From positions 79,500 through 143,499 of the forward strand of contig JBMOLW010000030.1 of assembly GCA_049323875.1 (NCBI GenBank): a stretch of DNA of 64,000 nucleotides. The letters are read 5' to 3'. Below, piece by piece: positions 12,623 through 54,537 of this stretch (position 1 is its first letter; every line of letters begins with the position of its first letter). Below the pieces are notes generated by a model that saw only the letters and a program-made list of their open reading frames with translations, was not told where the DNA came from and made no database searches. A program made the position numbers and the translations under genes. This DNA is from Nitrospirota bacterium (GTDB taxonomy: Bacteria; Nitrospirota; Thermodesulfovibrionia; Thermodesulfovibrionales; SM23-35).

Positions 12623-12746
12623 GGCAATTCGTTGAACTCTCTATGACACTATACCTTTTTGGGGTGGTTTTTGCCAGGAGGAACCTGACAGAAATAGTGA
12701 TTGAAAGGATTATGAACCGGAGCAGGGAAGATGAGGGCCGGAAATC

Positions 12747-13031
12747 TTACGCTTTGTCCTGCTTTTTGAATTCCACGCCGACCTTTACAGAGCTGTCTCC
12801 CATGCTCATAGTCCAGCGCACGACTGCATACAGGGAATCATTTGTAAGGATTCCCCGTATCATGATCTCTTCACCATCTGCAAGGGGGTGGTTCGTGATC
12901 ATGCATAATCCGGCATGGCTGAAATCCTGTATTATTCCTTTCAGGACTTTATCGGCTGAATGTGCAATGCGGGAATATTCTATAATCTGGGAAAAATCAT
13001 ACCGTGAGTTTTTTCTTTGTCCGGTTGACAT
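12747..13031 (-). CDS. Stand-alone PilZ-domain c-di-GMP receptor
   Basis: 94 aa with both canonical motifs: RKNSR (RxxxR) near the N-terminus and DFSHAG (DxSxxG). The SD aaggga lies upstream of the ATG. Confidence 0.75.
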   Translation of the reverse strand: MSTGQRKNSRYDFSQIIEYSRIAHSADKVLKGIIQDFSHAGLCMITNHPLADGEEIMIRGILTNDSLYAVVRWTMSMGDSSVKVGVEFKKQDKA

Positions 13032-13052
13032 TCTGTCCCTTTGGTCACTCTA

Positions 13053-13082
13053 GTTATAAATAAAATGCTGCGCATTTGTCAA
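13053..13082 (-). promoter_or_regulatory. Sigma70-type promoter for the PilZ gene
   Basis: The minus strand reads TTGACA - 18 nt - TATAAC. The -10 ends about 21 nt upstream of the PilZ ATG. Confidence 0.45.
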
Positions 13083-13154
13083 ATTTCCCTGCAAACCCGG
13101 ATTATGCGTAAATGAATGACCAAGGAGAGCAGACGCAGTATATCGCTCATTCTT

Positions 13155-13185
13155 GTCCCGATCCCGAAGGTATTCGGGACGGGAC
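13155..13185 (-). terminator. GC-rich stem-loop downstream of dtd (possible terminator, no U-tract)
   Basis: gtcccgatcccgaa-ggta-ttcgggacgggac forms a 13-14 bp stem with one bulge, about 30 nt after the dtd stop. It is not followed by a T-run on either strand. Confidence 0.3.
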
Positions 13186-13214
13186 TCCGAGGTATCTCCC
13201 GAAAGCGTTGCGGA

Positions 13215-13658
13215 TTATTGCCTCGAGTCCAGCAGTATTGTCACCGGACCGTCATTTATCAGATGAACCTTCATGTGAACTCCGAATTTACCCGTGAAGG
13301 CTGTGAGTCCGGTCTCACGCAATCTCTCAGCAAGCCTGAGGTATAAAGCTTCGGCCTTTTCAGGACCTTCAGCATTGTCAAATGATGGGCGGTTGCCTTT
13401 CCTGCAGTCTGCAGAGAGGGTGAACTGTGACACAACAAGGACTTTCCCTTTGATATCCTGCACGGAAAGGTTCATTTTCTGTTGCTTGTCTTCGAATATC
13501 CTTGCCTGAGAGATTTTTTTGAGCAGATACTCCATATCCCTGTCCGTGTCACCCTTTTCGACGCCAAGGAACACGAGAAGGCCCTGTGCGATTTCTGAAA
13601 TGACGTTACCGTTTACGGTAACCCGTGCTTCTGATACCCGTTGCAACAGTGCTTTCAT
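13215..13658 (-). CDS. dtd: D-aminoacyl-tRNA (D-Tyr-tRNA) deacylase
   Basis: [15 protein letters not shown]...[12 protein letters not shown]...SQFTL...GNRPSF: full-length family signature over 147 aa. Confidence 0.9.
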
Positions 13659-13691
13659 GTCTTCTGATTATTCAGTTTAAACTTCTGACTC

Positions 13692-38143: not shown

Positions 38144-40855
38144 ATGCGGTTATCCCGGACCCCGATGCTTTGTATGGCCAAGGGGAGAAATGCAGAACAG
38201 GTACCAGTGAACGACGCAGAAGAAACATCTTCAGGAAAGAGCGATCCCCGGTCATCCCGACCGATCCGGTCCGAGGGGATCGATGGCCAGGGGAAGAAAT
38301 GCCGGGAAATCCTGGAATGCAGGGAAATGAAGTGTCCTGCCTATGAACTGTCAACCCTGCAGTGCTGGCTCATTCCCCAAACCCTTTGCTACAATGCGAT
38401 CCAGGGTAATTTCCTCGACAAGATTGAATTGTGCATCGGATGCCGGGTCTTTGCAGAAAATATCGACCGCGAGTCCATTAAGGATACCCTCAAGATCGTA
38501 GACAGACAATTCCGTGAATTCCGGACGATTGTGGAAGAACACGACCGTGAAATGGAAAGGATAGGCATCGAACTCTCGATAAGCCTTTCAGAAGTGTTCG
38601 AGGCATTGCGCAGGATCGCAAAAGGTGATCCGTCGGTAGTGATTCCCGAAGACTCATCGATAGAACTTATCAGCATGCTCAAGCGGGTGGTGAACAGGAC
38701 AGCGGAAGACCTGAAGGAGAATGTGAACCTTTGCCATGAGTTTGCCATAGGCCTTGCGGAACATTTCGATGTCCTCCACCGGGTATCGAAAGGCGATCTT
38801 ACTGCCCGGGTGACCGGCGGTTCTGATATGGAACTCCTCGATTCACTGAAAAACGTTACAAACGATATGATTGCAAACATATCCGAAGAGATTACGAAAC
38901 GGAGAAAGGCGGAAGAGGAGCACAAACAACTGGAGACAAAATACCGGATTATCTTCGAAAATGCAGGCGCCCCTACGATAATTTTTGAAGACCATATGAA
39001 AATATGCATGGCGAACAAGGCATTTGAGCGGTTTTCAGGATATAGGAAAGAGGATGTCGAGGATAAGAGGGACCTCTACCATTTCATTCTCCAGGATGAT
39101 CTGGAGAAGATGAAAAACTTTTTTGAGGAAGGGGCGTCTCTCCGGTCCGCCAACAAAACTCTTGAGTTCCGCTTCATCGGCAGCAGGGGCAACGTGAAGC
39201 ATGTGATGGCTATAATATCTCACATTCCCGGCAGTAGTATGAGTGTTGCCTCCCTCCTGGAAATAACTGAGTTCAAACAGAGAGAGATGGAAGCGATCGC
39301 CTCCATCACAACTGCCCTTCGTTCAGCGCAGACCCGGGCGGACATGATGACGGTAATTATCGATCAGCTTATGGAATTCATGCGGGCTGACGGGGTGTCT
39401 CTCGCAATGCGCGACCCGGCAAGCGGGGAGGCTGTCATCGAGATATCGAAAGGAGACTGGGCTAACTGGACAGGGGTAAGATTGCATGCAGGGGAAGGAA
39501 TAAGCGGGTCCGTAATCGAAACAGGAAAGCCCTATGTAAACAATTCAGCCCTCTCGAGCACCCGCTTTGCCCGTCCGGACCTGATCGGCGATCTCAAGGC
39601 AGTTGCCTGTGTTCCCCTGATGACCCAGGGTCAGACCATCGGTGCGATATGGGTAGGGAGGAGGTCGGACATCGAAGGATATGAAATCAAACTGCTGACT
39701 GCCATAGGTGAAATTGCGGCAAATGCCATCCAGCGAACGACTCTCCATGAGCAGACAGAGCAGCGTCTCCAGCGTCTTTACGCCCTTCACGCAATAGACA
39801 TGGCAATCAGTGCAAGCCTTGATCTCCGGGTGACACTGAATATCCTGCTCGAGCATGTGACTACCCAGCTGCATACCGACGCGGCAACTGTCCTTCTTCT
39901 GAATTCTTCAACCGGAATCCTTGAATATGCAGCAAGCCGGGGATTCCGTTCCCGCACCATAAAACAGACGCGGCTGAGGATAGGGGAGGGGCATGCCGGG
40001 AGGGCGGTGCTCGAAAGACGGATTATCAATGTTCCGAACGTTATGAAAACGGATGATCCGTGCGTGCGTTCACAGATCCTTGCGGGCGAGGTATTTTTGG
40101 CCCATCATGCCGTTCCCCTTATCATCAAGGGGCATGTGAAAGGGGTGCTCGAAGTTTTTCACAGGACTGAACTGGACCCTGACCCTGAGTGGCTCGAATT
40201 CTTCGAAGCCCTTGCTGCGCAGGCTGCCATCGCGATAGACAACGCATCGCTTTTCGATGAACTGCAGCGCTCCAACATAGAACTGACGCTTGCCTATGAC
40301 ACTACCCTCGAAGGATGGTCGCATGCGCTCGACATGCGCGACAAGGAAACAGAAGGCCATACTCTCCGCGTCACCGAGATGACGGTAAAACTCGCGAGGA
40401 GCATGGGAATGAGTGAACCGGAGATCGTGCATATCAGGAGGGGCGCTCTCCTGCACGATATCGGCAAGATGGCGATTTCCGATACGGTGCTCCTCAAGCC
40501 GGGTCCTCTGAATAAAGACGAGTATGAAATTATGTGCAGGCACCCGGCCTATGCCTATGAAATGCTTAAGCCGATTTTGTTCCTGAGGCACGCACTCAAC
40601 ATCCCTTACTGCCACCATGAGAAGTGGGACGGCACAGGATACCCGCGAATGCTGAAGGGCGAGCAGATACCGCTCGAGGCCCGTATTTTTGCGGTAGTCG
40701 ACGTGTGGGACGCCCTGCGCTCGGACCGTCCATACCGTCCGGCGTGGTCTGAACAGCAGACCCTTGAATATATCCTGAACGAATCAGGGAGGCATTTCGA
40801 TCCGAAAGTAGTAAAAGCTTTTGTCGTCATCATGAAGAGCCAGGAGACCCTGTAA
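38144..40855 (+). CDS. Multidomain HD-GYP c-di-GMP phosphodiesterase (Cys-rich two-CW-like domain, helical linker, PAS, two GAF, HD-GYP)
   Basis: The seven-Cys block spans aa 53-100. PAS (YRIIFENAGAPTIIFED), two GAF domains (GQTIGAIWVGRR; GHVKGVLEVFH), and HD-GYP motifs HALDMRD...GHTLRV, LLHDIGK and HHEKWDGTGYP. The start codon is uncertain (38144, 38165 or 38174). Confidence 0.85.
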   Translation: MRLSRTPMLCMAKGRNAEQVPVNDAEETSSGKSDPRSSRPIRSEGIDGQGKKCREILECREMKCPAYELSTLQCWLIPQTLCYNAIQGNFLDKIELCIGCRVFAENIDRESIKDTLKIVDRQFREFRTIVEEHDREMERIGIELSISLSEVFEALRRIAKGDPSVVIPEDSSIELISMLKRVVNRTAEDLKENVNLCHEFAIGLAEHFDVLHRVSKGDLTARVTGGSDMELLDSLKNVTNDMIANISEEITKRRKAEEEHKQLETKYRIIFENAGAPTIIFEDHMKICMANKAFERFSGYRKEDVEDKRDLYHFILQDDLEKMKNFFEEGASLRSANKTLEFRFIGSRGNVKHVMAIISHIPGSSMSVASLLEITEFKQREMEAIASITTALRSAQTRADMMTVIIDQLMEFMRADGVSLAMRDPASGEAVIEISKGDWANWTGVRLHAGEGISGSVIETGKPYVNNSALSSTRFARPDLIGDLKAVACVPLMTQGQTIGAIWVGRRSDIEGYEIKLLTAIGEIAANAIQRTTLHEQTEQRLQRLYALHAIDMAISASLDLRVTLNILLEHVTTQLHTDAATVLLLNSSTGILEYAASRGFRSRTIKQTRLRIGEGHAGRAVLERRIINVPNVMKTDDPCVRSQILAGEVFLAHHAVPLIIKGHVKGVLEVFHRTELDPDPEWLEFFEALAAQAAIAIDNASLFDELQRSNIELTLAYDTTLEGWSHALDMRDKETEGHTLRVTEMTVKLARSMGMSEPEIVHIRRGALLHDIGKMAISDTVLLKPGPLNKDEYEIMCRHPAYAYEMLKPILFLRHALNIPYCHHEKWDGTGYPRMLKGEQIPLEARIFAVVDVWDALRSDRPYRPAWSEQQTLEYILNESGRHFDPKVVKAFVVIMKSQETL

Positions 40856-40912: not shown

Positions 40913-42214
40913 ATGCAACGCACGCGCAAGATCCCTGTCTCCGAAGAACATCTGCGAAACCTCGAACAGAAGGTGGAAGACCTCAGGATACTTGCTGAGA
41001 TATCCGCACTCATCTCTTCGACCCTTGATCTCAGCGAACTCATGACGCTTGTCATTGAAAAAGCAAAAACCCTCATGGATGCCGAGGCATGTTCAATCCT
41101 GCTCTATAACAGAAGCACGCACAAGCTCGAGTTCGAGGTCGCTTTCTGCAGGGAGACCACCGCGACAGATATCCTGAAAGAGACGATCACGCTCGATATC
41201 GGACAGGGCATAGCAGGATGGGTGGCAAAACATCAGAAAGTGCTGATTATCAATGATGTGCAGAAGGACAAACGCTTCTATCAGGAAGCCGACAAGGCGA
41301 CCGGATTTCTGACCAGGCGGATGATCGCGGTCCCTCTGGTCGGGAGGAGGGGGCTCATCGGCGTGGCAGAGATTCTGAACCCCCGGAAGGAAACGTACGA
41401 CAGCGAGGTGCTGGAGATACTCGCGAGGCATTTTGCGATCGCTATCGAAAACGCACTCTATTACCGGGATTCTCTTGAGAAGGAGCGGCTGAAGCAGGAG
41501 ATCGAGATAGCGGCTGTCCTGCAGAGGAGTTTTCTTCCGGAAAACCCTTTTTACCGCAAGGGGAACGTTACGGTCTCGGCAATCAATATTCCTGCAAAGC
41601 AGGTCGGGGGCGACCTCTATGATTTTGTCGAGCAGGTCGGGGGCAAACTCGGGGTTTTTATCGGAGATATTTCGGGAAAAGGGGTGTCAGCGGCTCTCTA
41701 CATGGCGAAGATCATCAGTGATTTCCGCAACTTCTCTCGTATGCAGGAAACACCGGATCTGGTCATGAACAGTCTGAACGATATACTCTCCAGAGCGCCA
41801 AGGGGGATGTTCCTTACCGCGCAGTATATTCTGGTAGACACCCTGACGGGAGAAATGAGCGTATCTGATGCCGGACATCCCCCTTTTCTCCTGGTCAGAA
41901 AAAGAGAAGTGAGGGTAATATCCGGACTGTGTGGCCCTCCCCTCGGGATTGTGCCCCTGCGCTATCCGGTAAGTACCTACTCCCTGAAGAGAGGAGACAG
42001 GCTGCTCTTCGTAACTGACGGGGTGTTTGAAGCAAAAAACCGGGAAGGGAAGCGCCTTGGTTTTGATTCCCTGGTCGCATACGTCAGGAAAAAGAAGGGC
42101 GGGGAGCGGCTCATGGAAAAGGTTGCGGAGTATGTGCAAAAATTTTCGAAGGGAGCAGAAGTTGCCGATGACCTTACTCTGGTGGAGCTCTGTTTTCTGG
42201 GTGAGAAGGAATGA
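40913..42214 (+). CDS. GAF-domain PP2C (SpoIIE/RsbU-type) serine phosphatase
   Basis: GAF (GIAGWVAKHQKVLIINDV...GVAEILN) followed by PP2C motifs AAVLQRSFLP, GGDLYDF, FIGDISGKGVSAALYMA, DAGHPP, FVTDGVFEA and DDLTLVEL. The first ATG is 40913; the ORF is open from TTG 40877. Confidence 0.85.
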   Translation: MQRTRKIPVSEEHLRNLEQKVEDLRILAEISALISSTLDLSELMTLVIEKAKTLMDAEACSILLYNRSTHKLEFEVAFCRETTATDILKETITLDIGQGIAGWVAKHQKVLIINDVQKDKRFYQEADKATGFLTRRMIAVPLVGRRGLIGVAEILNPRKETYDSEVLEILARHFAIAIENALYYRDSLEKERLKQEIEIAAVLQRSFLPENPFYRKGNVTVSAINIPAKQVGGDLYDFVEQVGGKLGVFIGDISGKGVSAALYMAKIISDFRNFSRMQETPDLVMNSLNDILSRAPRGMFLTAQYILVDTLTGEMSVSDAGHPPFLLVRKREVRVISGLCGPPLGIVPLRYPVSTYSLKRGDRLLFVTDGVFEAKNREGKRLGFDSLVAYVRKKKGGERLMEKVAEYVQKFSKGAEVADDLTLVELCFLGEKE

Positions 42215-42215
42215 G

Positions 42216-42632
42216 ATGAAAGAATCCCTGAGAATCTCGGTCCCCTCACATCCAAAGTACCTCTCTCTTCTCAGATCGGTCACCGCCAGAATGGCGGAAC
42301 TCTGCGGGTTCGGGGAGGAAGTATCCGAAAATATCAAGCTGGCCGTGGATGAAGCATGCACGAATGTGATCAGACATGCGTATCAGGGCGACACATCGAA
42401 AAAGATTGTTCTACAATATACGATCACGGCAACACAGTTTATGATCATTCTGGAAGACAGGGGTCAAAAGGCTGATATCCGATCGATACAGGGGAGAGAC
42501 CTTGAGGACATAAGGCCCGGAGGACTGGGCGTACACTTTATCAGAAGGATATTTGACGTTGTTGAATACCATGAAAAAAAGAAAAACGGCAACAGGCTTA
42601 TCCTCAGGAAACATCTTGGCAGGGAAAAATGA
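42216..42632 (+). CDS. RsbW/SpoIIAB-type anti-sigma-factor-like serine kinase (HATPase_c_2)
   Basis: N-box VDEACTNVIRHAY, and G-boxes EDRGQ and PGGLGVHFIRR. The ATG lies 1 nt after the phosphatase stop. Confidence 0.85.
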   Translation: MKESLRISVPSHPKYLSLLRSVTARMAELCGFGEEVSENIKLAVDEACTNVIRHAYQGDTSKKIVLQYTITATQFMIILEDRGQKADIRSIQGRDLEDIRPGGLGVHFIRRIFDVVEYHEKKKNGNRLILRKHLGREK

Positions 42633-42958
42633 ACATAGGGGTTGTTGAGGAGCAGGGGAGGAAAGTGCTCACCCTTTCGGGTGAAATCGACATGTATTCT
42701 TCGCCCGAACTCAGACAGGAACTGATGGCTATTCTCGCGGAGAAGGTCCCGGTCCTCCTGATTGATTTCAGGGAAGTCTCCTATATCGACAGTTCCGGAA
42801 TCGCAACGTTTGTCGAAGGGCTGAAATACGTCAAAACATACGGGGGAAAGCTCCAATTTTTCAGCATACCCACGGGGATTATGGATATTTTCAGATTCTC
42901 CAAACTCGACAGGGTATTCGAGATTTATGGAACTCTTGACGATGCCATCAAGAGCTGA
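42629..42958 (+). CDS. STAS-domain protein (RsbV/SpoIIAA-type anti-anti-sigma; positionally MlaB-like)
   Basis: 109 aa with LTLSGEIDMYSSPELRQEL and the phospho-serine motif SYIDSSGIATFVEG. There is a 4-nt overlap with the kinase, and its 3' end overlaps the mlaE start. Confidence 0.85.
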   Translation: MNIGVVEEQGRKVLTLSGEIDMYSSPELRQELMAILAEKVPVLLIDFREVSYIDSSGIATFVEGLKYVKTYGGKLQFFSIPTGIMDIFRFSKLDRVFEIYGTLDDAIKS

Positions 42959-43748
42959 AACCCTTTTCGGTCGTTTCGGGAAAAAAGCCAATTCTGTGTT
43001 CCGTGATATCCATGATGCGTCAAAAATCATCAATGAGATATTCTACTGGTCGTGCATGTCGCCGCTCAGAGGGAAGCCTGTCCGCTTCAGGGCAAGCATT
43101 TATGAAATGGTCAAGGCCGGCTATAATTCTGTCCCCATTATTGCGGTCATATCGTTTTTTATCGGAATAATACTCGCCTTTCAGGCGGCATACCAGTTGA
43201 AGAAGGTCGGCGCCCTGATCTATGTGGCGAACCTTGTGGGAGTATCTATCACCCGTGAACTCGGGCCGATCATTACCGCGATTATCGTATCGGGAAGGAG
43301 CGGGTCTGCCTATGCTGCTGAGATCGGCTCGATGAAGGCTGCCGAAGAGGTCGACGCACTCATCAGCATGGGCATTAACCCGGTGCGCTTTATCGTCGTC
43401 CCGAAACTGGTAGCCCTGGCAGTCATGGTGCCTGCACTCACGCTGTTTTCAGACCTTATCGGGATAGCCGGCGGCTTTGTTCTGTCCGTCTCAGTGCTTG
43501 AGATCCATCCGTACAATTATTTTCAGCAGACAGTAAACGCTCTCCTGGTGAAAGATGTCCTTACGGGCCTAATGAAGGCCGGGGCTTTCGGGGTGATCAT
43601 AACCGTTGTCGGGGCATATCAGGGTTTTAAGGTTACCGGAGGCGCCGAAGAAGTGGGGCGGAGAACGACTGCAGCGGTAGTGGCCTCCATATTTCTGGTG
43701 ATAGTATTTGATCTTTTATTTACTGCGCTGTTTTTCTATTTTACCTGA
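42927..43748 (+). CDS. mlaE: MlaE-type ABC transporter permease
   Basis: SVPIIAVISFFIGIILAFQ, ITRELGPIITAIIVSGRSGSAYAAEIGSMKAAEEVDAL and five or more TM segments. The start is ATG 42927 or 42942. Confidence 0.85.
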   Translation: MELLTMPSRAETLFGRFGKKANSVFRDIHDASKIINEIFYWSCMSPLRGKPVRFRASIYEMVKAGYNSVPIIAVISFFIGIILAFQAAYQLKKVGALIYVANLVGVSITRELGPIITAIIVSGRSGSAYAAEIGSMKAAEEVDALISMGINPVRFIVVPKLVALAVMVPALTLFSDLIGIAGGFVLSVSVLEIHPYNYFQQTVNALLVKDVLTGLMKAGAFGVIITVVGAYQGFKVTGGAEEVGRRTTAAVVASIFLVIVFDLLFTALFFYFT

Positions 43749-43752
43749 AACT

Positions 43753-44538
43753 ATGGAAACGGCAATTGAAGTCAGGAACCTTATAACCCACTACGGGGAC
43801 AGGGAGATCCTCAGGAACATATCATTTTCGATCCCGAGGAGAAAAACCTCGGTAATCCTCGGGGGGAGCGGATGCGGGAAGAGCACGCTCCTGAAGCATC
43901 TCATCGGGCTTCTGAAACCCACATCAGGGGAGATCCTGATCAACGGCAATGACATTGCCGGGATGAACGAAGAAGCATTGAACGGAGTAAGAAAGAAAAT
44001 GGGTGTCCTCTTCCAGGGAGCAGCGCTCCTCAATTCAATGACCGTTGCAGAAAATGTCGCTCTCCCACTCCGTGAACACACAAAACTCAATGCTTCCACC
44101 GTCGGTATCATGGTCCGTATGAAACTCGACCTTGTAGGCCTTTCGGGATTTGACAAGTTTTATCCCTCACAGCTCTCAGGTGGGATGAAGAAGAGGGCAG
44201 GGCTGGCGAGGGCTATAGCCCTCGACCCGGAAATCCTGTTTTTCGACGAACCATCGGCGGGGCTCGATCCGGTGACTGCCGCAGGACTCGACGAGCTGAT
44301 CGTGAACCTGAGGAACGTATTCGGAATGACGATCATCGTCGTAACCCACGAGCTTCCGAGTGTATTCACCATTGCTGATTATGTTATCATGCTTGACAAG
44401 GGTCTGGTTATCTTTGCCGGAACGCTCGATGAACTCAGGGTGTCGGATAACCCGAGGATCAGAATGTTCCTGGACAGGAAACCGGAACAGGAAATGTACT
44501 CGCCCGAAGATTACTTCAGGATAATCGTGGGCGAATGA
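43753..44538 (+). CDS. mlaF: MlaF-type ABC transporter ATP-binding protein
   Basis: Walker A GGSGCGKST, Q-loop, signature LSGGMKKRAGLARA, Walker B ILFFDEPSAGLDP and H-loop VVTHEL. Confidence 0.9.
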   Translation: METAIEVRNLITHYGDREILRNISFSIPRRKTSVILGGSGCGKSTLLKHLIGLLKPTSGEILINGNDIAGMNEEALNGVRKKMGVLFQGAALLNSMTVAENVALPLREHTKLNASTVGIMVRMKLDLVGLSGFDKFYPSQLSGGMKKRAGLARAIALDPEILFFDEPSAGLDPVTAAGLDELIVNLRNVFGMTIIVVTHELPSVFTIADYVIMLDKGLVIFAGTLDELRVSDNPRIRMFLDRKPEQEMYSPEDYFRIIVGE

Positions 44539-44568
44539 CTACTGCATGCTGACGGTGCGAAGGAAACC

Positions 44569-45465
44569 ATGAAGGACGAGATCAAGGCAGGGATAATAAT
44601 CGTAAGCTCAGTCGTGATTCTGAGCGCCTTCATTATCCTGATCGGCGGCGGTCAGTTTTTCGAAGAGTTCGACACCTATACCATAGAGGTCATGAATGCG
44701 GCAGGCCTGGAGCCGGGAGCACAGGTAAGGCTCGGGGGAGTCAGGGTGGGAAGGGTGCTTGCTATTCATGCACCCGTAAAACCGGGAGAACCCGTAACCA
44801 TCAAGGTAGGGGTAAAGAAGGGGACTCTGCTCTATAAGGGGACGAAAGCCCTTATTACCCAGGTCGGCTTTGTAGGAGATATTTATCTCCTGCTCTCTGT
44901 GAATGATACCGTTGACGGGGTTATTCAGGCCGGATCGGTAATCCCTTCCGAGGAAAAGGTGCCGATGGACGTGCTCATGGCAAAACTCAACGGGCTATCT
45001 GAGTCTGTCGACAGACTGATTACTGATATCGATAAGCTCTTTAACGAGAAGAACCTGAAGAATGTTGAAGCCCTTATTGGAAATACCAACACGGCGATTG
45101 TTGCAGGCTCGGCAAATATCGAAAAGATCGCATCAGGACTCAAGGCAACAACCGAAAAACTGGAGGGAGTTCTCGGCGAGATAGATACAATCGTCAGGGA
45201 AAACAGCGGAGAGATATCCCTGCTGGTAAAGAAAGCGCGCGAAGACATCGAAAGGGCAGGGGAGATGATCAGGAGCATAGAGTCAACGGCAAAGTCTGTT
45301 GAGAAGACTTCAAGGACAGCTGACAGAACGATTGAGTACCAGTCGAGGAATATCGAGAACCTGATTCTTGCAATGACGAAAACTACGGAAGAAATGCAGG
45401 ACCTCCTCCAGGAGATCAAACACAAACCCTGGAGCGTATTGTACAAGGAACGAGGGGGAGAGTGA
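44569..45465 (+). CDS. mlaD: MlaD/MCE-domain substrate-binding protein with a long helical C-terminus
   Basis: An N-terminal TM anchor (IIIVSSVVILSAFIILIGG), the MCE core AGLEPGAQVRLGGVRVGRV, and a coiled-coil tail. Confidence 0.8.
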   Translation: MKDEIKAGIIIVSSVVILSAFIILIGGGQFFEEFDTYTIEVMNAAGLEPGAQVRLGGVRVGRVLAIHAPVKPGEPVTIKVGVKKGTLLYKGTKALITQVGFVGDIYLLLSVNDTVDGVIQAGSVIPSEEKVPMDVLMAKLNGLSESVDRLITDIDKLFNEKNLKNVEALIGNTNTAIVAGSANIEKIASGLKATTEKLEGVLGEIDTIVRENSGEISLLVKKAREDIERAGEMIRSIESTAKSVEKTSRTADRTIEYQSRNIENLILAMTKTTEEMQDLLQEIKHKPWSVLYKERGGE

Positions 45466-45469
45466 GACG

Positions 45470-46045
45470 ATGAAAAGAGTGTTGCTCACCGTAGGTATTC
45501 TTGTTGCAACAACTGCGTGCAGCATGCCTGAAACAAGGATTTATAGCCTCATGCTCCCCGGTACGGTGAAGGTTAACCAGCAGAGTCACGAGAGGCAGGC
45601 ATCTCTTGTCATTGTCATGGATGCTCCCCGGCATCTCAGTCAATCGTATATCGTGTACAGGGTTTCCCCGTATCAGCTCCGGATTTCGCGGTATGCGAAA
45701 TGGGAATCACCGCCGGATGAGATCGTACGGAGGGCTATCCGGGATACCCTGGCCGGTACAGGCAGATTCAGGGATGTCAGGGCCGCTTCCCTGGTCTCTG
45801 AAGGGTCGTATGTGCTCGAGATCAATCTGAAAAGATTCGAGAGGACAGAGAGCGAAAACGATGTCTTTGGTGAACTCTCGTTCGATATGAAACTAGTTTC
45901 TCCTGAAGAGGCCGAGCTCTCTTATGCAGCAATCACGAAAAAAGTGAAACTCGAAGACGGGAATTTTCTCAGTCTTGCCCGGGGGTTGAGCGCTGCCCTT
46001 GGAGAAGCCCTGGAGGAAGTGCAGGCAGAGGTTAGTAAGCCTTAG
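45470..46045 (+). CDS. PqiC/YmbA-like (DUF330) transport-auxiliary lipoprotein
   Basis: Lipobox LVATTAC, about 190 aa, starting 4 nt after mlaD. This placement is typical of ABC-type transport auxiliary lipoproteins. Confidence 0.65.
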   Translation: MKRVLLTVGILVATTACSMPETRIYSLMLPGTVKVNQQSHERQASLVIVMDAPRHLSQSYIVYRVSPYQLRISRYAKWESPPDEIVRRAIRDTLAGTGRFRDVRAASLVSEGSYVLEINLKRFERTESENDVFGELSFDMKLVSPEEAELSYAAITKKVKLEDGNFLSLARGLSAALGEALEEVQAEVSKP

Positions 46046-46063
46046 CCTTTCTACCACATATAA

Positions 46064-47362
<1,299 letters not shown>

Positions 47363-47463
47363 GGCAGGATGTATCTGAAGAGAATATTAGAATGCCGGGG
47401 TTTGCCATCGATATGAAAATACCCCTGTCCATAGATCTACAGGCATTTTGTTAGGAGTACGAA

Positions 47464-49122
47464 ATGAAACTCCATGAACTCGCAGGCAAACCAGCGCCGA
47501 GATCGCTGCTCGCCAATATCCCGAGACTCATTGCGGCCTATTATGCGTACAAGCCGGATGCCGATGAAACAACCCATCAGGTGTCGTTCGGCACGTCCGG
47601 ACACCGGGGTTCTTCCCTGAGACACAGCTTCAATGAAGCACATATCCTCGCAATCAGTCAGGCCATATGCGAATACAGAAAAACGAACCGCATCAGGGGG
47701 CCCCTGTTCCTGGGAATGGACACCCATGCATTGTCAGAACCTGCGCGGGTGAGCGCACTCGAGGTCTTTGCAGCGAACAAGATACCGGTTCTGGTGCAGC
47801 AGGGGTTCCGGTATACCCCAACCCCGGTAATCTCACATGCTATCCTTACGTATAACAAAAAGATCCGCGGGATCAGAGGCCGCTCCGATGGTGTGGTCAT
47901 TACTCCTTCCCATAATCCACCCGAGGATGGAGGGTTCAAGTACAACCCCCCCCACGGCGGTCCTGCCGATGACGGCACCACCAGGAGAATCGAGGAAAAG
48001 GCAAACGAGCTGCTCGCCAGGGGACTCAAAGGCGTCAGGAGGATGCCGTACGAAAGGGCAGTAAAGAGCGGATCCATTTCCGAATATGATTATATATCTC
48101 CTTATGTAGACGACCTTGTCAATATCATAGACATGGAGTGTATTTCATCCGCAGGGTTGAAGATCGGTGTGGACCCGCTGGGAGGGGCTGCGATCGATTT
48201 TTGGGAGCCTATTGCAGACCGCTACGGAATTGCACTTGAGGTGGTCAATACGGTTATCGATCCTGCATTCTCCTTTATGACTTTGGACAAGGACGGAAAG
48301 ATCAGGATGGACTGCTCGTCACCCTATGCAATGGAGCGTCTCATACGGTTAAAAGATAGATACGATATTGCCTTTGGAAACGATACGGATGTGGACCGCC
48401 ACGGGATCGTAACGAGAGAGGCAGGTCTCATGAACCCGAACCATTATCTGTCAGCAGCACTATGGTTTCTCCTCCAGAACAGGACGGATTGGAGAAAAGA
48501 CGCAATGGTAGGGAAGACTCTTGTTTCGACCTCCATGATCGACAGAGTTGCCGGAGCGCTCGGGAGGAGAGTCTCGGAGGTGCCTGTTGGATTCAAATGG
48601 TTTGTTGAAGGACTTATCGATGGCTCATACGCGTTTGGGGGAGAAGAGAGCGCAGGAGCTTCTTTTGTGAGGAAGAACGGAACGGTATGGACAACGGACA
48701 AGGACGGCATCATCATGGACCTCCTTGCCTGTGAAATCACTGCCGGAACGGGGAAGGACCCCGCTTTCCTCTATCAAGAGCTTGAGGAAAGGTTCGGCAG
48801 ACCGTCATATATTCGTATTGATGCGCCGGCAACGTCTGAACAGAAGGCTGTTCTGAAAAAACTCTCTCCTGAAATGGTTACTTCACATGAACTTGCAGGG
48901 GAGCCCATAACTGCAAAATTGACCCGTGCTCCGGGCAATAATGCTGAAATCGGGGGGCTGAAGGTTATTACCCAAAACGGATGGTTTGCTGCGCGTCCTT
49001 CAGGCACGGAGGATATTTACAAAATTTATGCAGAGAGTTTCCTTGGCAGGGAACATCTCGAGAAGATACAGGATGAGGCTCTAGCAATTGTCAGCGACGC
49101 ATTCGTCCGGGCAGGCGTCTGA
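47464..49122 (+). CDS. pgm: Phosphoglucomutase (alpha-D-glucose-phosphate-specific, E. coli Pgm type)
   Basis: FGTSGHRG, the phosphoserine loop [36 protein letters not shown] and a length of 552 aa. Confidence 0.9.
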
Positions 49123-49131
49123 GAGAACTCT

Positions 49132-49575
49132 ATGAAAATTTTGACAACTCCGCGGATGGAACGATGCATAGGATGTCATTCCTGTTCTCTTGCCTGCGCA
49201 CGGCTGGTGCATAAGAGGCTTTCGTGGGACACCGCAGGGATACGGATCCGCACATCGGGCGGACTCTCGACAGGGTTTGAGGCGAAGAGCTGTCTTGCCT
49301 GCAACCCAGCTCCCTGCGCCGAGGCCTGCCCGACCGGAGCCTATTCCCAGAGAAAAGGGGGAGGGGTTCTCGTCAGAAAAAAACTCTGCATCAGATGTGG
49401 TGAATGCGCAAGGGCATGTCCGGTCGACGCTATCTATCTCGATCCTTCAGGAGAGCCGTTTGTCTGCATTCATTGCGGCCGCTGTGTGCAGTTCTGCCCC
49501 CATGACTGTCTCGAGATGAGGGAAGTGAAAGAAGAGTACAGCGTTCAGGGATCTGAAGGGGAGGAGCAGGGATGA
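49132..49575 (+). CDS. Polyferredoxin-like protein with four [4Fe-4S]-type Cys motifs (AOR electron-transfer subunit-like)
   Basis: CIGCHSCSLAC, CLACNPAPCAEACP, CIRCGECARACP and CIHCGRCVQFCP (16 Cys). It starts 9 nt after pgm and has an ATGA overlap with the AOR gene. Confidence 0.8.
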   Translation: MKILTTPRMERCIGCHSCSLACARLVHKRLSWDTAGIRIRTSGGLSTGFEAKSCLACNPAPCAEACPTGAYSQRKGGGVLVRKKLCIRCGECARACPVDAIYLDPSGEPFVCIHCGRCVQFCPHDCLEMREVKEEYSVQGSEGEEQG

Positions 49576-51338
49576 TCCGCGACCATTTCAGGGTCCTTGC
49601 ACTTGATCTTATCACAGGACGGGGCAATATTATTGAGGTGGAAGGACGGAACGAAACAGCAGGGGGGAGCGGCCTTGCCGCGGTCCTTTTTGGCAGGTTC
49701 GGGCACTCTGGAAAACCATGGAATGATCCGGAACAGCCTCTCATCTTCACTATCGGCCCGCTTACCGGATATTTCCCCCTCATGAGCAAGACAGTGTGTG
49801 CATTCAAGTCACCTTTCCATGGTCAGTATGCTGAAAGTCACGGGGGAGGCAGGTCCGCTCTTGCCCTCAGGTTTGCTGACCTTGATGCGCTCGTGATAAC
49901 CGGCAAGGCTGCGAAACCTGTTTGCGTAGCTGTCGGTTCACGCCATCTCGCCATCCGGGAAGTCCACTATCTCTGGGGCATGGATGTCTTTGCAGCGGGC
50001 AAATATCTCAGGAATATGTACCGGGGGTCGGGGCACCGGAGCATTCTCCGCATCGGCCCTGCAGGTGAAAAGGGTTCACCAATGGCCTGTATCAACGCAG
50101 ATACCTACCGTCATTTCGGCAGGCTTGGCGGAGGAGCAGTAATGGGTGCGAAAAACCTTAAGGCCATAGTCATCCAGGGAGATGCATCATTCATGCTTCC
50201 CGGGAATACGGAATATCCGAAACTTTTCCAGGAGGTGCACAGACGGCTTACCGATACGGACATGATGAGCAAATACCATAACCTCGGAACACCGGCGAAC
50301 GTAATGCTCCTGAACAATCTGAAGGCATTGCCGGTAAGAAATCTCCGGCAGACAACAGATCCTCGTATTGAGGGAATATCAGGCGAGAAGTTTGCAGAAG
50401 TCGCACTGCTCAGGAACAATGCATGCTCGGGATGTCCTGTCGGGTGCATCCATATAGGCTTTGTCAGGGAAAGGTTCCATGAGGAGAACAGATACCTGTA
50501 CCGTCAGGTGGCGTACGATCATGAGCCGATTTTTGCGACAGGTTCCATGCTCGGGGTGTTTGACTGTTTCGCAGTGCTCGGCATCATGGACATAGTGGAA
50601 AGGATGGGACTCGATGTGATGTCAGCAGGGGTAGCTCTTGCCTGGGCCACAGAAGCCTTTGAGAAAGGGCTTATCTCTGAAGCAGAGACGCTGATCCCCC
50701 TGAAATTCGGTGATGCGGAGGGTTACCGGAGGGCTATACAGCACCTTGCAAACGGAACCAATGAATTCTATCAGCTTCTTGGAAAGGGGACCATGGTTGC
50801 AGCGGAGCGGTATAGCGGGAAAGACTTTGCCTGTGTCCTTGGGCAGGAGATGGCAGGGTATGCTACCGGCGAGGTATTTTTCGCTTCGCAGGCCCTTGGG
50901 TTCAGACATTCACATCTGGATTCAGCGGGATATTCCTTTGACCAGAAGACCGGAGAGAAGAATGCCGGAAAAGCGGTTGATTTTCTCGTACAGGATGAAC
51001 AGGGGAGGGTTTTTCTCACCTCAATGGTAGCCTGTCTGTTCGCCCGCAGCGTATACAACGATGAACTGCTCGGCAAATGCCTGGAATCCCTCGGCTACGG
51101 AGAACTTGCAGCGAAGATGCCGGAGGTGTCCCGTTTTATCCAGAGGCTCCGCTGGAAAACGAGGATTTTGACTGGTTTCGACCCAGGGTCCGTTTCAATC
51201 CCGAAGAGGTTTACCGAAGTCGTGAACTGGAAGGGTCCGGTTGATGCAGAATACCTGAATGCTGTCAGGGAAGAATATGCAGTGAGAATTCTCGATATGG
51301 GTAGCGATGGAGAGACTGGGCGGGAAGGAACATCCTGA
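49572..51338 (+). CDS. Aldehyde:ferredoxin oxidoreductase (AOR) family tungsto/molybdopterin enzyme
   Basis: The AOR N-terminal domain (GGSGLAAVLF, GPLTG, FKSPFHG, ESHGGG, GPAGEK), the [4Fe-4S] motif CSGCPVGC, and the C-terminal pterin-binding domains (EMAGYATGE). Length 588 aa. Confidence 0.9.
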   Translation: MIRDHFRVLALDLITGRGNIIEVEGRNETAGGSGLAAVLFGRFGHSGKPWNDPEQPLIFTIGPLTGYFPLMSKTVCAFKSPFHGQYAESHGGGRSALALRFADLDALVITGKAAKPVCVAVGSRHLAIREVHYLWGMDVFAAGKYLRNMYRGSGHRSILRIGPAGEKGSPMACINADTYRHFGRLGGGAVMGAKNLKAIVIQGDASFMLPGNTEYPKLFQEVHRRLTDTDMMSKYHNLGTPANVMLLNNLKALPVRNLRQTTDPRIEGISGEKFAEVALLRNNACSGCPVGCIHIGFVRERFHEENRYLYRQVAYDHEPIFATGSMLGVFDCFAVLGIMDIVERMGLDVMSAGVALAWATEAFEKGLISEAETLIPLKFGDAEGYRRAIQHLANGTNEFYQLLGKGTMVAAERYSGKDFACVLGQEMAGYATGEVFFASQALGFRHSHLDSAGYSFDQKTGEKNAGKAVDFLVQDEQGRVFLTSMVACLFARSVYNDELLGKCLESLGYGELAAKMPEVSRFIQRLRWKTRILTGFDPGSVSIPKRFTEVVNWKGPVDAEYLNAVREEYAVRILDMGSDGETGREGTS

Positions 51339-51402
51339 TCCATGAGGAGAGCCCAGGGGCAGATGCTGGGGGAGATATCCTGTGCGAGAGGAGGACGATG
51401 CT

Positions 51403-53070
51403 ATGCTCGATAAGATTGATCCGTCAGAAACCCGTGCGTGGAAAAAACTTCTCAGTCATTTCAGGAGGATGAGAAAAAAGCATATGCGGGATATGTTTCA
51501 GAAAGACCCGGCAAGGTTTTCCCGGTTCTCTCTGACATTCGAGGATATTACAGTAGACTTTTCCAAGAACATCATATCAGGCAGAACCATGAAGCTGCTT
51601 CTGGAACTCGCAGAGGAATGCCGGCTCAGGGAAGCGATCGGATGCATGTTCAACGGGGACAAAATCAATGAGACTGAAGGCCGTGCCGTGCTCCATGTTG
51701 CTCTCAGAAACCGTGCGAATGTCCCTGTCTTTGTTGATGGAAGGGACGTAATGCCTGAGGTAAATGCTGTCCTCGACCAGATGAAGAGGTTTTCTGAAGC
51801 CGTCATCAACGGTGAATGGAGAGGCTATACAGGCAAGCCTGTTTCCGATATTGTGAATATCGGTATCGGCGGATCGGACCTCGGTCCTCACCTGGTGACT
51901 GAGGCGCTGCAACCATACAGGAAAGCTCATCTTCGCACGCATTTTGTCTCGAATGTTGACGGAACCCATATCACCGAGACCTTGAAGGGACTGTCACCCG
52001 AAACCACGCTTTTCCTGGTCGTTTCCAAGACCTTCACCACCCAGGAGACGATGAGAAATGCCCGGACTGCGCGGCAGTGGTTTCTTGATGCAGCCCGGAA
52101 CGAGGGATTCATCAGAAATCATTTCGTGGCGGTTTCCACGAATACAGACGAAGTCCTGAAATTCGGTGTGGATACTTCCCATATGTTCAGGTTCTGGGAC
52201 TGGGTGGGCGGCAGGTATTCTCTCTGGTCAGCTGTCGGCCTCTCGATCGCCTGTTCGCTGGGGTTTGAGAATTTCCTCGCGCTCCTTGAAGGGGCTCATG
52301 CGGTAGACGTTCACTTCCGGGCCACCCCGTTCGAAAAGAACATCCCGGTAATCCTCGCCCTGATCGGGATCTGGTACGGAAGTTTTTTCGGAGCCGAGAC
52401 CGAAGCGGTCCTTCCCTATGATCAGTATATGCACAAATTCCCCGCATATTTGCAGCAGTGCAACATGGAGAGCAACGGAAAGTCCGCAGACAGGACAGGG
52501 AATAAGGTTACCTATCAGACCGGTCCCATAATCTGGGGGCAGCCGGGGACAAACGGCCAGCACGCCTTCTACCAGCTTATCCATCAGGGCACGAAGACAA
52601 TCCCCTGTGATTTTCTTGCACCTGCGCTGAGTCATAACCCGGTCGGAGATCATCACGATATACTGGTATCAAATTTCTTTGCGCAGACAGAGGCGATGAT
52701 GAAAGGAAAAACAAGGGAAGAGGTGAGTGCCGAACTCCGGGCATCGGGCATGAGCGATGAACAAGTGCGGTTTCTTGCTCCGTTCAAAATATTTCACGGC
52801 AACGTCCCGACCAACTCGATACTGTTCCACAAACTTACTCCAAGGACACTGGGGAGTCTCATCGCGCTTTACGAACACAAGATCTTTGTGCAGGGCATTC
52901 TCTGGAATATATACAGTTTCGACCAGTGGGGAGTTGAATTGGGCAAGCAGCTTGCTAACAGAATCCTGCCTGAACTGGGCGACCGGAATCCCGTCTCCGG
53001 GCATGATTCATCGACGAACGGACTGATAAACAGGTATAAGGAACTGCGCTCACAGGATACGGCTTCATAG
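51403..53070 (+). CDS. pgi: Glucose-6-phosphate isomerase
   Basis: [37 protein letters not shown] and ESNGK signatures. ATG 51403 is preceded by GAGGAGGA; the ORF is open from GTG 51382. Confidence 0.9.
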
Positions 53071-53106
53071 ACGAAGAACGGTTTAAAGGATGGCTGGAGG
53101 ATATCC

Positions 53107-54537
53107 ATGAAATTACCTGCAAACAAGACAAAGATCGTATGCACCATAGGGCCCGCATCCCGTTCACCTGATATTATGGAAAAGATGCTGCTGGCCGGAA
53201 TGAATGTGGCGCGGCTCAATTTCTCGCATGGTGACCTGAGCGAACATGGCAGGGTGATACAGGATCTCCGTGAAACTGCCCGAGCGCTCGGCAGGCGGGT
53301 TACGATCATGGCAGACCTTCCGGGACCGAAAATCAGAATCGGACATCTTTCACACGAGCCGGTATATGTGAAGGCCGGTGATAATATGGTTTTAACAACC
53401 GACACCATTACCGGAGATGCGAGCAGGGTCTCTGTTAGTTTCGACAGACTTCCCGCCGCAGTAAAACCCGGAGATACCCTGTTCCTCAACGACGGCATGA
53501 TCAGCCTTGAGGTGGTAAACGTCAGCGGGAGGGAAGTTTACTGCCGGGTTCTCGTGGGGGGAGAACTCAGGTCAAGGAAGGGACTCAACCTGCCGGGGAT
53601 CGACCTGGGGATCAGTGCCTTTACCAGATACGACCATGATTGCCTGAAATTCGCCCTGGAGCAAGGAATAGATGCCGTCAGTCAGTCATTTGTGGAAGAC
53701 GCCGCTGACATACAGGCTGTAAGAGAAGCCGCTGCTTCTCTGGGACATCAGCCGTTTATCATAGCGAAGATCGAAAGGGCAAGGGCGCTGGATCATATCG
53801 ATGAAGTGATTGATGCGGCAGACGGGATCATGATTGCGAGGGGCGATCTCGGAGTAGAACTTCCCATAGAACGGATCGCGGTGGTCCAGAAACAGCTTAT
53901 GCGCAAAGCGAACATGCGGGCCAAACCAGTGGTAACTGCCACCCATATGCTCGAATCGATGATCTCCAATCGCCGCCCGACCCGCGCGGAGTCAACTGAT
54001 GTGGCAAACGCCATCCTTGACGGGACTGACTGTGTCATGCTTTCCGGCGAATCGGCCATGGGTAACTTTCCGGTTGAGTCGGTCGAGATGCTTGCGAGGA
54101 TTGCCGCAGCGATTGAACCGTACCGCGTCAGGATGAGCGCAAAAGAGATGTTCCAGGGGCTTGTCCTTACGGGGGATGTGCCCCCGGCAAGGCTTGTTGA
54201 CCTGAGTGTGGAAACAGTCCTTGAATACGCGAAGCCTGCAGCGGTATTTGTTCCGACCCGCAGTGGGTTTACCGCAAGGAGTATCGGGCGTTTCAGGCTT
54301 CCGGTGTGGATTGTTGCAATCAGTTCACAGGATGCCACCTGTCAGAGGCTGCAATTCTCTTCAGGAGTATATCCTGTGCTGGAAAAAGAGCACCCTGAGA
54401 ACTGGAAACCCTATGTGAGTGATTGGTTGACCAGACATGAAATCCCCGGAAAGTTTATTGTGCTTACTGAGGGGCCGTCGTCAAAACATCCCGATGCAAA
54501 CCACCGCATGGAGATCCTCGATATCAGGACTTCCTGA
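53107..54537 (+). CDS. pyk: Pyruvate kinase
   Basis: KTKIVCTIGPAS, GMNVARLNFSHG, MIARGDLGVELP and ATHMLESM. The stop overlaps the alaS stop region (convergent 14-nt overlap). Confidence 0.9.
   Translation: MKLPANKTKIVCTIGPASRSPDIMEKMLLAGMNVARLNFSHGDLSEHGRVIQDLRETARALGRRVTIMADLPGPKIRIGHLSHEPVYVKAGDNMVLTTDTITGDASRVSVSFDRLPAAVKPGDTLFLNDGMISLEVVNVSGREVYCRVLVGGELRSRKGLNLPGIDLGISAFTRYDHDCLKFALEQGIDAVSQSFVEDAADIQAVREAAASLGHQPFIIAKIERARALDHIDEVIDAADGIMIARGDLGVELPIERIAVVQKQLMRKANMRAKPVVTATHMLESMISNRRPTRAESTDVANAILDGTDCVMLSGESAMGNFPVESVEMLARIAAAIEPYRVRMSAKEMFQGLVLTGDVPPARLVDLSVETVLEYAKPAAVFVPTRSGFTARSIGRFRLPVWIVAISSQDATCQRLQFSSGVYPVLEKEHPENWKPYVSDWLTRHEIPGKFIVLTEGPSSKHPDANHRMEILDIRTS

Follow-up and report, generated by a model that had tools for sequence, protein, structure and literature searches.

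We describe here an operon of seven plus-strand open reading frames (ORFs), at positions 40913–46045 of a 64-kb stretch of DNA from a Thermodesulfovibrionales bacterium (Nitrospirota); the whole of this stretch is called the window below, and positions are counted from its first letter. In the operon, the genes for a GAF-PP2C phosphatase, an RsbW-like kinase and a STAS protein, in this order, run directly into those for an MlaE-family permease, an MlaF-like ATPase, a long MCE protein and a PqiC-like lipoprotein. We consider it probable that reversible phosphorylation of Ser55 in the STAS protein gates the transporter that the last four genes encode, a lipid transporter of the Mpc (Mla-Pqi chimeric) type. 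What carries this proposal is the gene content of the operon, the coupling of its genes, their conservation, a fusion link between STAS and MlaE, intact catalytic and acceptor motifs, and the lack of a linked sigma factor.

From these observations we infer a contact between the STAS protein and MlaF/MlaE, phosphorylation of Ser55, a direction of switching, a lipid as the substrate and a signal received by the GAF domain, which may fit together as follows. The seven genes would encode one machine, namely an Mpc-type trans-envelope lipid ATP-binding cassette (ABC) transporter with a dedicated partner-switching module. The 109-aa STAS protein would be the free-standing counterpart both of the STAS domain that is fused to MlaE elsewhere and of E. 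coli MlaB. In its unphosphorylated form it would dock on the cytoplasmic face of MlaF/MlaE by way of helix alpha2 (residues 55–70), and once docked it would support assembly of the transporter and its ATPase activity. The RsbW-like kinase would compete for the same face of the STAS protein and phosphorylate Ser55, thereby releasing STAS and turning the transporter off, and the GAF-PP2C phosphatase, with a small ligand bound, would strip the phosphate and turn transport on again. A phospho-switchable STAS protein gating an Mla-type transporter, with the PP2C sensor as its input, is what the first-pass annotation of the window had suggested, and every comparative test that was run lends support to it at the level of sequence.

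Gene order and junctions

Gene assignments were made by comparing the window proteins with the Pfam and NCBIfam models (Table 1). The near-zero spacing of the genes that had been claimed earlier agrees with the ORF calls at each of the junctions. A single nucleotide separates the TGA stop codon of the phosphatase gene (42212–42214) from the ATG of the kinase gene (42216), the kinase and STAS genes share the ATGA at 42629–42632, and the stop codon of the STAS gene (42956–42958) lies within mlaE, for which the ATG at 42927 or the one at 42942 may be used. The latter is favoured by the relatives and by the 268-aa cluster representatives, in which case the STAS and mlaE genes overlap by 17 nt. Further downstream, the gaps are 4 nt (mlaE-mlaF), 30 nt (mlaF-mlaD) and 4 nt (mlaD-lipoprotein gene). 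In a scan of the window for promoters and terminators, every terminator-like match on the plus strand fell inside a gene, and the stretch was found in DNA runs from biofilm metagenomes and in no RNA run.

The motifs that the first-pass annotation had read in the three switch proteins are also borne out. YIDSSGI in the STAS protein and EACTNVIRHA and GGLGVHF in the kinase are all present in the window proteins, and are invariant or nearly so in 70–78 orthologues. In the kinase, the N-box (DEACTNVIRH; DEAxxN..H), D81xG83 and the G-box GGLG are conserved in 78 sequences. As for the PP2C metal motifs behind a GAF domain, the SpoIIE and GAF_2 matches in Pfam confirm the two domains, and the motifs GGDLYD, GDISGKG, TDG and DD are invariant across 71 orthologues.

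Table 1. Position and assignment of the genes of the operon, of the predicted phospho-acceptor codon and of the upstream neighbour.
Feature	Position in the window	Strand	Matches
Two-CW/PAS/GAF/GAF/HD-GYP protein	38144..40855	+	Pfam HD_5 1.7e-35, GAF, PAS; NCBIfam two-CW
GAF-PP2C (SpoIIE-type) serine phosphatase	40913..42214	+	SpoIIE 1.8e-43 (residues 243-427); GAF_2 4.5e-16 (residues 38-179)
RsbW/SpoIIAB-like GHKL serine kinase, 138 aa	42216..42632	+	Pfam HATPase_c_2 (PF13581) 7.7e-28
RsbV-type STAS protein, 109 aa	42629..42958	+	Pfam STAS 1.5e-18; TIGR00377 69.9 bits
Ser55 codon, predicted phospho-acceptor (D54-S55-S56-G57)	42791..42793	+	alignment with RsbV/TM1442 'DS(T/A)G'
MlaE-family permease	42942..43748 (alternative start 42927)	+	Pfam MlaE 1.1e-75; TIGR00056 240.5 bits (cutoff 212.2)
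MlaF-like ABC ATPase, C-terminal tail of about 20 aa	43753..44538	+	best NCBIfam model MlaF, 245 bits, below the equivalog cutoff of 441
MCE protein, 298 aa, MpcD-like	44569..45465	+	Pfam MlaD 1.7e-11 (residues 36-107); TIGR00996 MCE 1.2e-17
PqiC/MpcA-like outer-membrane lipoprotein	45470..46045	+	ABC_trans_aux PF03886 51.1 bits (cutoff 26)

Conservation in Thermodesulfovibrionia

A query of species-representative genomes with MlaE alone gave 80 loci, all of them from Thermodesulfovibrionia (Nitrospirota), with Magnetobacterium, Sulfobium and Dissulfurispiraceae among them, at 67–94% MlaE identity; the neighbours of mlaE were scored by tblastn with the window proteins. In each of the 77 loci with sufficient contig on the upstream side, mlaE was directly preceded by the kinase and STAS genes, and in 74 of these the phosphatase gene was also located upstream, on the same strand. 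Kept as it is in 77/77 informative loci, the kinase-STAS-mlaE arrangement is far beyond chance. The 17-nt overlap of STAS and mlaE is retained as well (59 of 79 loci), which is consistent with stoichiometric co-production of the two proteins, and an overlap of 4 to 26 nt between the genes of kinase and STAS is seen in most loci. The lipoprotein gene was found in 62/80 loci.

In some of the genomes (L032, L062, L063, and L079 and L080, both Magnetobacterium) mlaE is not followed by mlaF and mlaD, yet PP2C-kinase-STAS-mlaE is still intact, and the tightest association is therefore that of the switch with the permease gene. What follows mlaE in these loci varies: L062 has an HlyD/AcrB RND pump (10907–15086) and L079 a 1121-aa DUF5684/DUF4124 protein (11086–14451). 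L051 has an insertion of about 3.2 kb (L051:7674–10853) that separates mlaE from mlaF.

STAS-MlaE fusions and spread beyond Nitrospirota

An exhaustive HMMER search with MlaE, keeping one representative per 50%-identity cluster, returned 11,468 relatives, and the fusion counts that follow cover the best 150 of these (38–77% identity). An N-terminal extension was seen in 120 of the 150, which are 320–410 aa long and have their MlaE domain from about residue 100–170 onwards. In a subset of the extended representatives Pfam recognized STAS together with MlaE in 10 cases out of 10, and over all 120 it reported STAS_2 in 96 and STAS in 77, while a hidden Markov model (HMM) iterated from orthologue alignments found STAS in 110 of the 150 representatives. 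At least 96 of the 150 nearest representatives are thus STAS-MlaE fusions, and by Rosetta-stone reasoning the STAS position is a physical part of the transporter. The STAS-MlaE fusion as such is already on record, both from Pfam (Thong 2016, PMC5016091) and for Brucella MpcE (PMC12436622).

Metagenome contigs were scanned with an alignment of 26 unfused MlaE proteins from outside the clade of the window, resulting in 80 diverse loci, which were scored with home-built HMMs, again iterated from orthologue alignments; the counts refer to the 69 loci in which the contig extends 450 nt or more beyond MlaE on the upstream side. A kinase plus a free STAS was found in 24 loci, a free STAS only in 15, a fused STAS in 24 and none of these in 6, i.e., STAS was directly 5' of MlaE, or fused to it, in 63/69. 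The kinase always came with a free STAS (24/24), and not one of the 24 fused loci has a kinase. In the MlaE tree, the free-STAS loci and the kinase loci all fall in one clade (SH-aLRT, an approximate likelihood ratio test of branch support, 99), where the kinase-bearing ones occupy several deep branches; the fused forms sit in separate branches.

The kinase led to the same place when it was made the starting point. A profile of the non-Nitrospirota kinases matched 6,057 proteins at E <= 1e-10, and those with a named source were from Terriglobia or Acidoferrum (Acidobacteriota); a second kinase query, from the lineage of L085, brought up Acidobacteriota names again. Four contigs were chosen by kinase similarity alone, and genes were called independently and labelled with Pfam. 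All four (4/4) carry HATPase_c_2-STAS-MlaE and an ABC ATPase gene; in three of them the ATPase gene comes directly after MlaE and MlaD is next, with ABC_trans_aux after it in two, and in the fourth (L163) another gene stands between MlaE and the ATPase gene. The kinase family is dedicated to the MlaE context. The arrangement is thus not unique to the genome of the window, a finding in favour of the reading in the first-pass annotation: PP2C-kinase-STAS-mlaE is found across Thermodesulfovibrionia, and the order kinase-STAS-MlaE-MlaF-MCE recurs in Acidobacteriota and in further lineages.

These counts bear on another possible wiring, in which the kinase would be an anti-factor that keeps MlaF (or MlaE) from acting, in the way that RsbW restrains sigma B, and unphosphorylated STAS would capture the kinase and so free the transporter. 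Such a scheme follows the canonical RsbW/SpoIIAB logic, it finds kinase, STAS and PP2C all intact, and it agrees with the strict co-occurrence of kinase and transporter. It is, however, STAS and not the kinase that is fused to MlaE, STAS that overlaps mlaE at the gene junction, and STAS that occurs without a kinase in many related transporters (15 free and 24 fused of the 69 loci). In E. coli, too, the subunit that binds MlaF is a STAS protein (PMC7367683). We therefore regard the anti-factor scheme as quite improbable and favour a STAS protein that itself docks on MlaF/MlaE.

The STAS protein and Ser55

The first-pass annotation had likened the STAS protein to MlaB. When scored by profile HMM against MlaB on the one hand and RsbV/SpoIIAA on the other, as the annotation had proposed, it exceeded the cutoff of 53.45 for the anti-sigma antagonist superfamily TIGR00377 (69.9 bits) and failed the MlaB model. 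Its AlphaFold2 (AF2) model, with a predicted local distance difference test (pLDDT) score of 96, has the complete RsbV/SpoIIAA fold. In a Foldseek search of the PDB, the best match was RsbV in the RsbV-RsbW complex (6m36), at a template modelling (TM) score of 0.85–0.92, followed by SpoIIAA and other antagonists. The sequence matches agree with this, with E values of 1.9e-13 for TM1442 and 6e-13 for RsbV, and of only ~0.02–0.04 for the MlaB chains of the PDB. With the MlaB HMM failed and a full RsbV fold, membership in the MlaB family was rejected.

Ser55, the predicted phospho-acceptor, aligns with the phospho-serine of RsbV and of SpoIIAA, and is located at the start of the helix spanning residues 55–70 (alpha2) in the AF2 model. 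The motif is invariant in 78 sequences and the stretch YIDSSGIATFVEGL is invariant or nearly so in the Nitrospirota orthologues. Between the STAS proteins of Nitrospirota and Acidobacteriota, which are ~30% identical overall, Y-I/V-D-S-S-G-I-A-x-x-V-E is invariant. This is what may be expected if a single face of the STAS protein serves two partners, and the invariance of the DSSG stretch is consistent with such a role. As a further point of likeness to the MlaFEDB complexes, Ser55 aligns with what we take to be Thr52 of E. coli MlaB (D51-T52). Thr52 lies at the centre of the interface with MlaF, and T52E weakens binding while T52A abolishes ATPase activity (PMC7367683, PMC5016091).

The acceptor residue is Ser or Thr in each of the 101 STAS proteins that are linked to a kinase, and 100 of these keep DSSG; among the kinase-less or fused ones it is Ser or Thr in 108 of 148 and A, G, D or L in the other ~27%. 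The comparison is suggestive of serine retention being tied to the presence of the kinase. Some of the fused STAS-MlaE proteins (among L081–L160 and P0124–P0270) have Asp at the acceptor site, in the motif DDFG, and others have Gly or Ala. An Asp at this site would mimic a permanently phosphorylated STAS, which would be odd if phosphorylation means 'off'.

The acceptor site is also where a constitutive role of STAS has to be considered. The protein could be a permanent, MlaB-like subunit of the transporter, with the kinase and the phosphatase acting elsewhere or with Ser55 needed for catalysis or assembly, and expression during envelope stress would be all that the genes have in common. It fits this idea that T52A costs E. 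coli MlaB its ATPase activity with no known kinase involved (PMC5016091), that ~73% of the kinase-less STAS also have Ser/Thr at the acceptor site, and that the correlation of serine with kinase is not significant after phylogeny is taken into account. On the other hand, the genes of kinase and STAS overlap by the 4 to 26 nt given above in most loci, no locus with a fused STAS has the kinase, and the DSSG together with the next helix is invariant wherever the kinase is present. Moreover, the kinase is of a type for which, to our knowledge, STAS serines are the only known substrates. Taken together, we find a constitutive STAS very unlikely, and a Ser55 that is phosphorylated and dephosphorylated remains our preferred reading.

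Kinase, phosphatase and their sensors

Among the NCBIfam models, the best for the kinase were RsbW and SpoIIAB, all of them under their equivalog cutoffs; the RsbW-model scores were 80.6 and 72.9 bits, the former against a cutoff of 145. The kinase is accordingly RsbW-like and not an RsbW orthologue. The GAF-PP2C phosphatase is proposed to be the signal input of the switch. The sensors on kinase-linked phosphatases vary, from GAF in the window to FHA-GAF in L081 and CHASE2 in L116, and interchangeable sensors on linked phosphatases are the usual input logic of partner switches. The linked PP2C gene is placed upstream on the same strand in Nitrospirota, and convergently, right after the lipoprotein gene, in seven loci of the acidobacterial type. 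The sensor-bearing PP2C genes are at L081:5366–7132 (FHA-GAF) and L116:4939–6855 (CHASE2, a membrane/periplasmic domain). A further one, with a PAS domain, is at L111:3000–4130; in this locus, PAS-PP2C and STAS precede mlaE and the kinase is not detectable.

Sigma factors

The first-pass annotation had noted the absence of a sigma-factor ORF from the 64 kb, and likewise, four tblastn probes for sigma-70-family genes matched nothing in the window. The same four probes did detect RpoD and ECF (extracytoplasmic function) sigma genes in other loci. Over the 164 loci searched (1.9 Mb), sigma matches were obtained in only 5, scattered and not adjoining the module.

This result is relevant to what would be the ordinary explanation, i.e., a partner switch with its true target elsewhere, be it a sigma factor or another regulator, that shares a transcript with the transporter and makes no contact with it. 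The closest relatives of the STAS protein and the kinase, by HMM and by fold, are RsbV/RsbW and SpoIIAA/SpoIIAB, which do control sigma factors, and a distal group-3 sigma factor would fall outside the scope of a search of the window and the 164 loci. Nevertheless, there is no linked sigma gene in all this DNA, and the genes are ordered kinase-STAS-mlaE with an overlapping junction and not in the canonical order STAS-kinase-sigma. The link of the module to mlaE persists across two phyla while other neighbours change, sister transporters have STAS fused to MlaE, and the blindly picked relatives of the kinase always adjoin MlaE. We thus consider a distal target unlikely, and the transporter the better candidate for the output of the switch.

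In the literature that we searched, which takes in subscription papers only in part, no paper joins partner switching to MlaE, to MlaB kinases or to lipid ABC transport. Nor do we know of a kinase acting on E. coli MlaB. Phosphoregulation of this protein has been proposed explicitly, as an open question, in two eLife papers (PMC5016091, PMC7367683), and a 2021 review of STAS-only proteins leaves Mla and ABC transporters unmentioned.

Transporter components

The best PDB matches of the ATPase are the MlaF proteins of A. baumannii, E. coli and P. aeruginosa (~1e-62 to 1e-63), with a mycobacterial Mce ATPase fusion protein (8fed) close behind. The alignment with P. aeruginosa MlaF reaches residue 259 of 261 and thus extends into the C-terminal tail, which is partly conserved in the orthologues; in E. 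coli, the corresponding tail of MlaF clasps the adjacent MlaF-MlaB pair. The MCE protein has an N-terminal transmembrane helix, one MCE domain and ~150 helical residues. In the AF2 model, a helix at 2–28 is followed by strands within 34–118 and helices within 133–285; the monomer model is of low confidence (mean pLDDT 58, in the helical part), as expected for a chain of an oligomer, and we used its secondary structure alone.

The lipoprotein has a Cys in its signal-peptide region (VATTACS). Besides the ABC_trans_aux domain, it matches the NCBIfam model pqiC weakly (22.9 bits), as it does the PDB structures of PqiC (8q2c) and YmbA (6osx). Its best solved matches, also weak, are 13hr, 13hs and 13hq, each entered as 'ABC-type transport auxiliary lipoprotein component domain-containing protein', and these structures may come from an Mpc-like system. 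The lipoprotein gene is the only one between the MCE gene and the enolase gene that follows the operon, in which neither mlaC nor mlaA is found.

Neighbouring genes

The gene for the HD-GYP protein, a phosphodiesterase of cyclic di-GMP (c-di-GMP), ends 57 nt before the ATG of the phosphatase gene. The first-pass annotation had drawn attention to this neighbour. Among the relatives, only the five closest (L001–L004 and L006) have it upstream of the module, and we have rejected HD-GYP, and with it c-di-GMP, as a conserved part of the module. In an acidobacterial-type contig, a gene for a GAF-PAS-GGDEF diguanylate cyclase is located between mlaE and the ABC ATPase gene (L163:7026–8987), so that two different c-di-GMP enzymes, one GGDEF and one HD-GYP, adjoin the module in two phyla. 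This may be by chance or may reflect a recurrent link.

On the downstream side, enolase begins 30 nt after the lipoprotein gene and is followed by phosphoglucomutase, on the same strand (46076–54537). The scan of the window gave no terminator-like site between the lipoprotein, enolase and phosphoglucomutase genes. Enolase was downstream in three loci only, and co-transcription of the transporter operon with these glycolytic genes, if it occurs, may be limited to this genome and the three relatives closest to it.

Comparison with known systems

With the MlaFEDB complexes of E. coli, A. baumannii and P. aeruginosa (PDB 6xgy, 6xbd, 7ch8, 7d06; PMC7367683, PMC5016091) the operon shares MlaE, MlaF with its tail and an MCE protein, and a gene for a small STAS protein is part of the operon in each case. 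The present operon differs from them in having a STAS protein with the full RsbV-type fold, where MlaB is minimal, in the position of the STAS gene 5' of mlaE, where mlaB is at the end of its operon, and in the long MCE protein that is followed by a PqiC-like lipoprotein; neither mlaC nor mlaA is part of it. In addition, the locus contains a dedicated kinase and PP2C phosphatase, and we know of no Mla system described so far that has them.

The architecture of the transporter is the same as that of MpcEFDA of Brucella abortus (EMBO J 2025, PMC12436622), whose components MpcE, F, D and A come through purification together, in a single complex. Both have an MlaE-like permease, an MlaF-like ATPase, a single-MCE protein of ~300–330 aa whose C-terminal part is a long helical extension and, as the last gene, a PqiC-like lipoprotein, and neither has MlaC or MlaA, on our side within the scope of the operon. 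The transporter is better called Mpc type than classical Mla. A STAS goes with the permease in two different forms: in Brucella it is a fused part of the permease, and neither a kinase nor a phosphatase has been reported, whereas here it is encoded by a separate, overlapping gene that the kinase and phosphatase genes precede.

The switch, for its part, is made up of the same three parts as RsbU/RsbP-RsbV-RsbW-sigma B and SpoIIE-SpoIIAA-SpoIIAB-sigma F of B. subtilis (PDB 6m36, 1th8), with a PP2C phosphatase whose N-terminal sensor varies, a serine kinase of the GHKL type, and a STAS protein that is phosphorylated on the serine of DS(S/T)G in B. subtilis and in which the motif alone has been read here. 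In our case the order is PP2C-kinase-STAS-transporter, no sigma factor is encoded in the operon, and the proposed output is a membrane transporter and not RNA polymerase. Outputs other than sigma factors are likewise known for BtrU/V/W of Bordetella (type III secretion), SypE/SypA of Vibrio fischeri (biofilm) and the heterocyst-polysaccharide module of cyanobacteria (PMC8256260, PMC4517449, bioRxiv 10.64898/2026.04.08.717354), but in none of these is the output an ABC or MCE lipid transporter.

Discussion

Several points weigh against gating of the transporter through Ser55. First of all, the case is built from gene context and sequence only. The STAS protein falls far short of the MlaB model mlaB_1 (NF033618; 21.4 bits, cutoff 90), and its AF2 model has a fifth strand (98–100) and a last helix (103–108) that are both missing in MlaB. 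MlaB chains come no higher than ranks 40–48 in Foldseek, at TM scores of 0.57–0.69, and the score of 54 bits to the antagonist TM1442 exceeds that of 41 bits to the best fused STAS domain; common descent of the STAS protein with the fused STAS or MlaB domains is not shown by these sequence comparisons. The correlation of serine with kinase comes down to only 3–4 phylogenetically independent contrasts (sign test p = 1). Several kinase-bearing loci have no PP2C gene within 8 kb. Finally, the negative result for sigma factors is one for the window and the 164 loci, and not for distal regions of the genomes.

With these points taken into account, we still hold gating through Ser55 to be probable. 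More tentatively, the operon may represent a widespread class of partner switch, in which STAS would alternate between the kinase and MlaF/MlaE and so gate an MCE/Mpc transporter directly, not transcription, with PP2Cs of exchangeable sensors setting the state; the class is perhaps ancestral to the 'split-STAS' clade of MlaE. If the split-STAS form is indeed ancestral, then MlaB of the proteobacteria and the STAS domains fused to MlaE would be its descendants or relatives, having no kinase and being constitutively 'on'.

The individual parts of such a system are known. What appears to be new here, as far as sequence comparison can tell, is a partner switch that acts on a transporter or, seen from the other side, an Mla/Mpc transporter whose STAS is under the control of a kinase. 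It would be a natural system in which a transporter STAS is paired with a kinase and a phosphatase of its own, and would thus bear on the open question of phosphoregulation at Thr52 of MlaB. On this reading, many proteins of Nitrospirota and Acidobacteriota that are annotated as 'anti-sigma factor' or 'anti-sigma antagonist' would carry a misleading label. If the proposal is true, this would be the first partner switch to have an ABC transporter as its output, it would provide a mechanism for rapid on/off control of intermembrane lipid traffic, and it would give a reason for the attachment of STAS domains to Mla/Mpc transporters.

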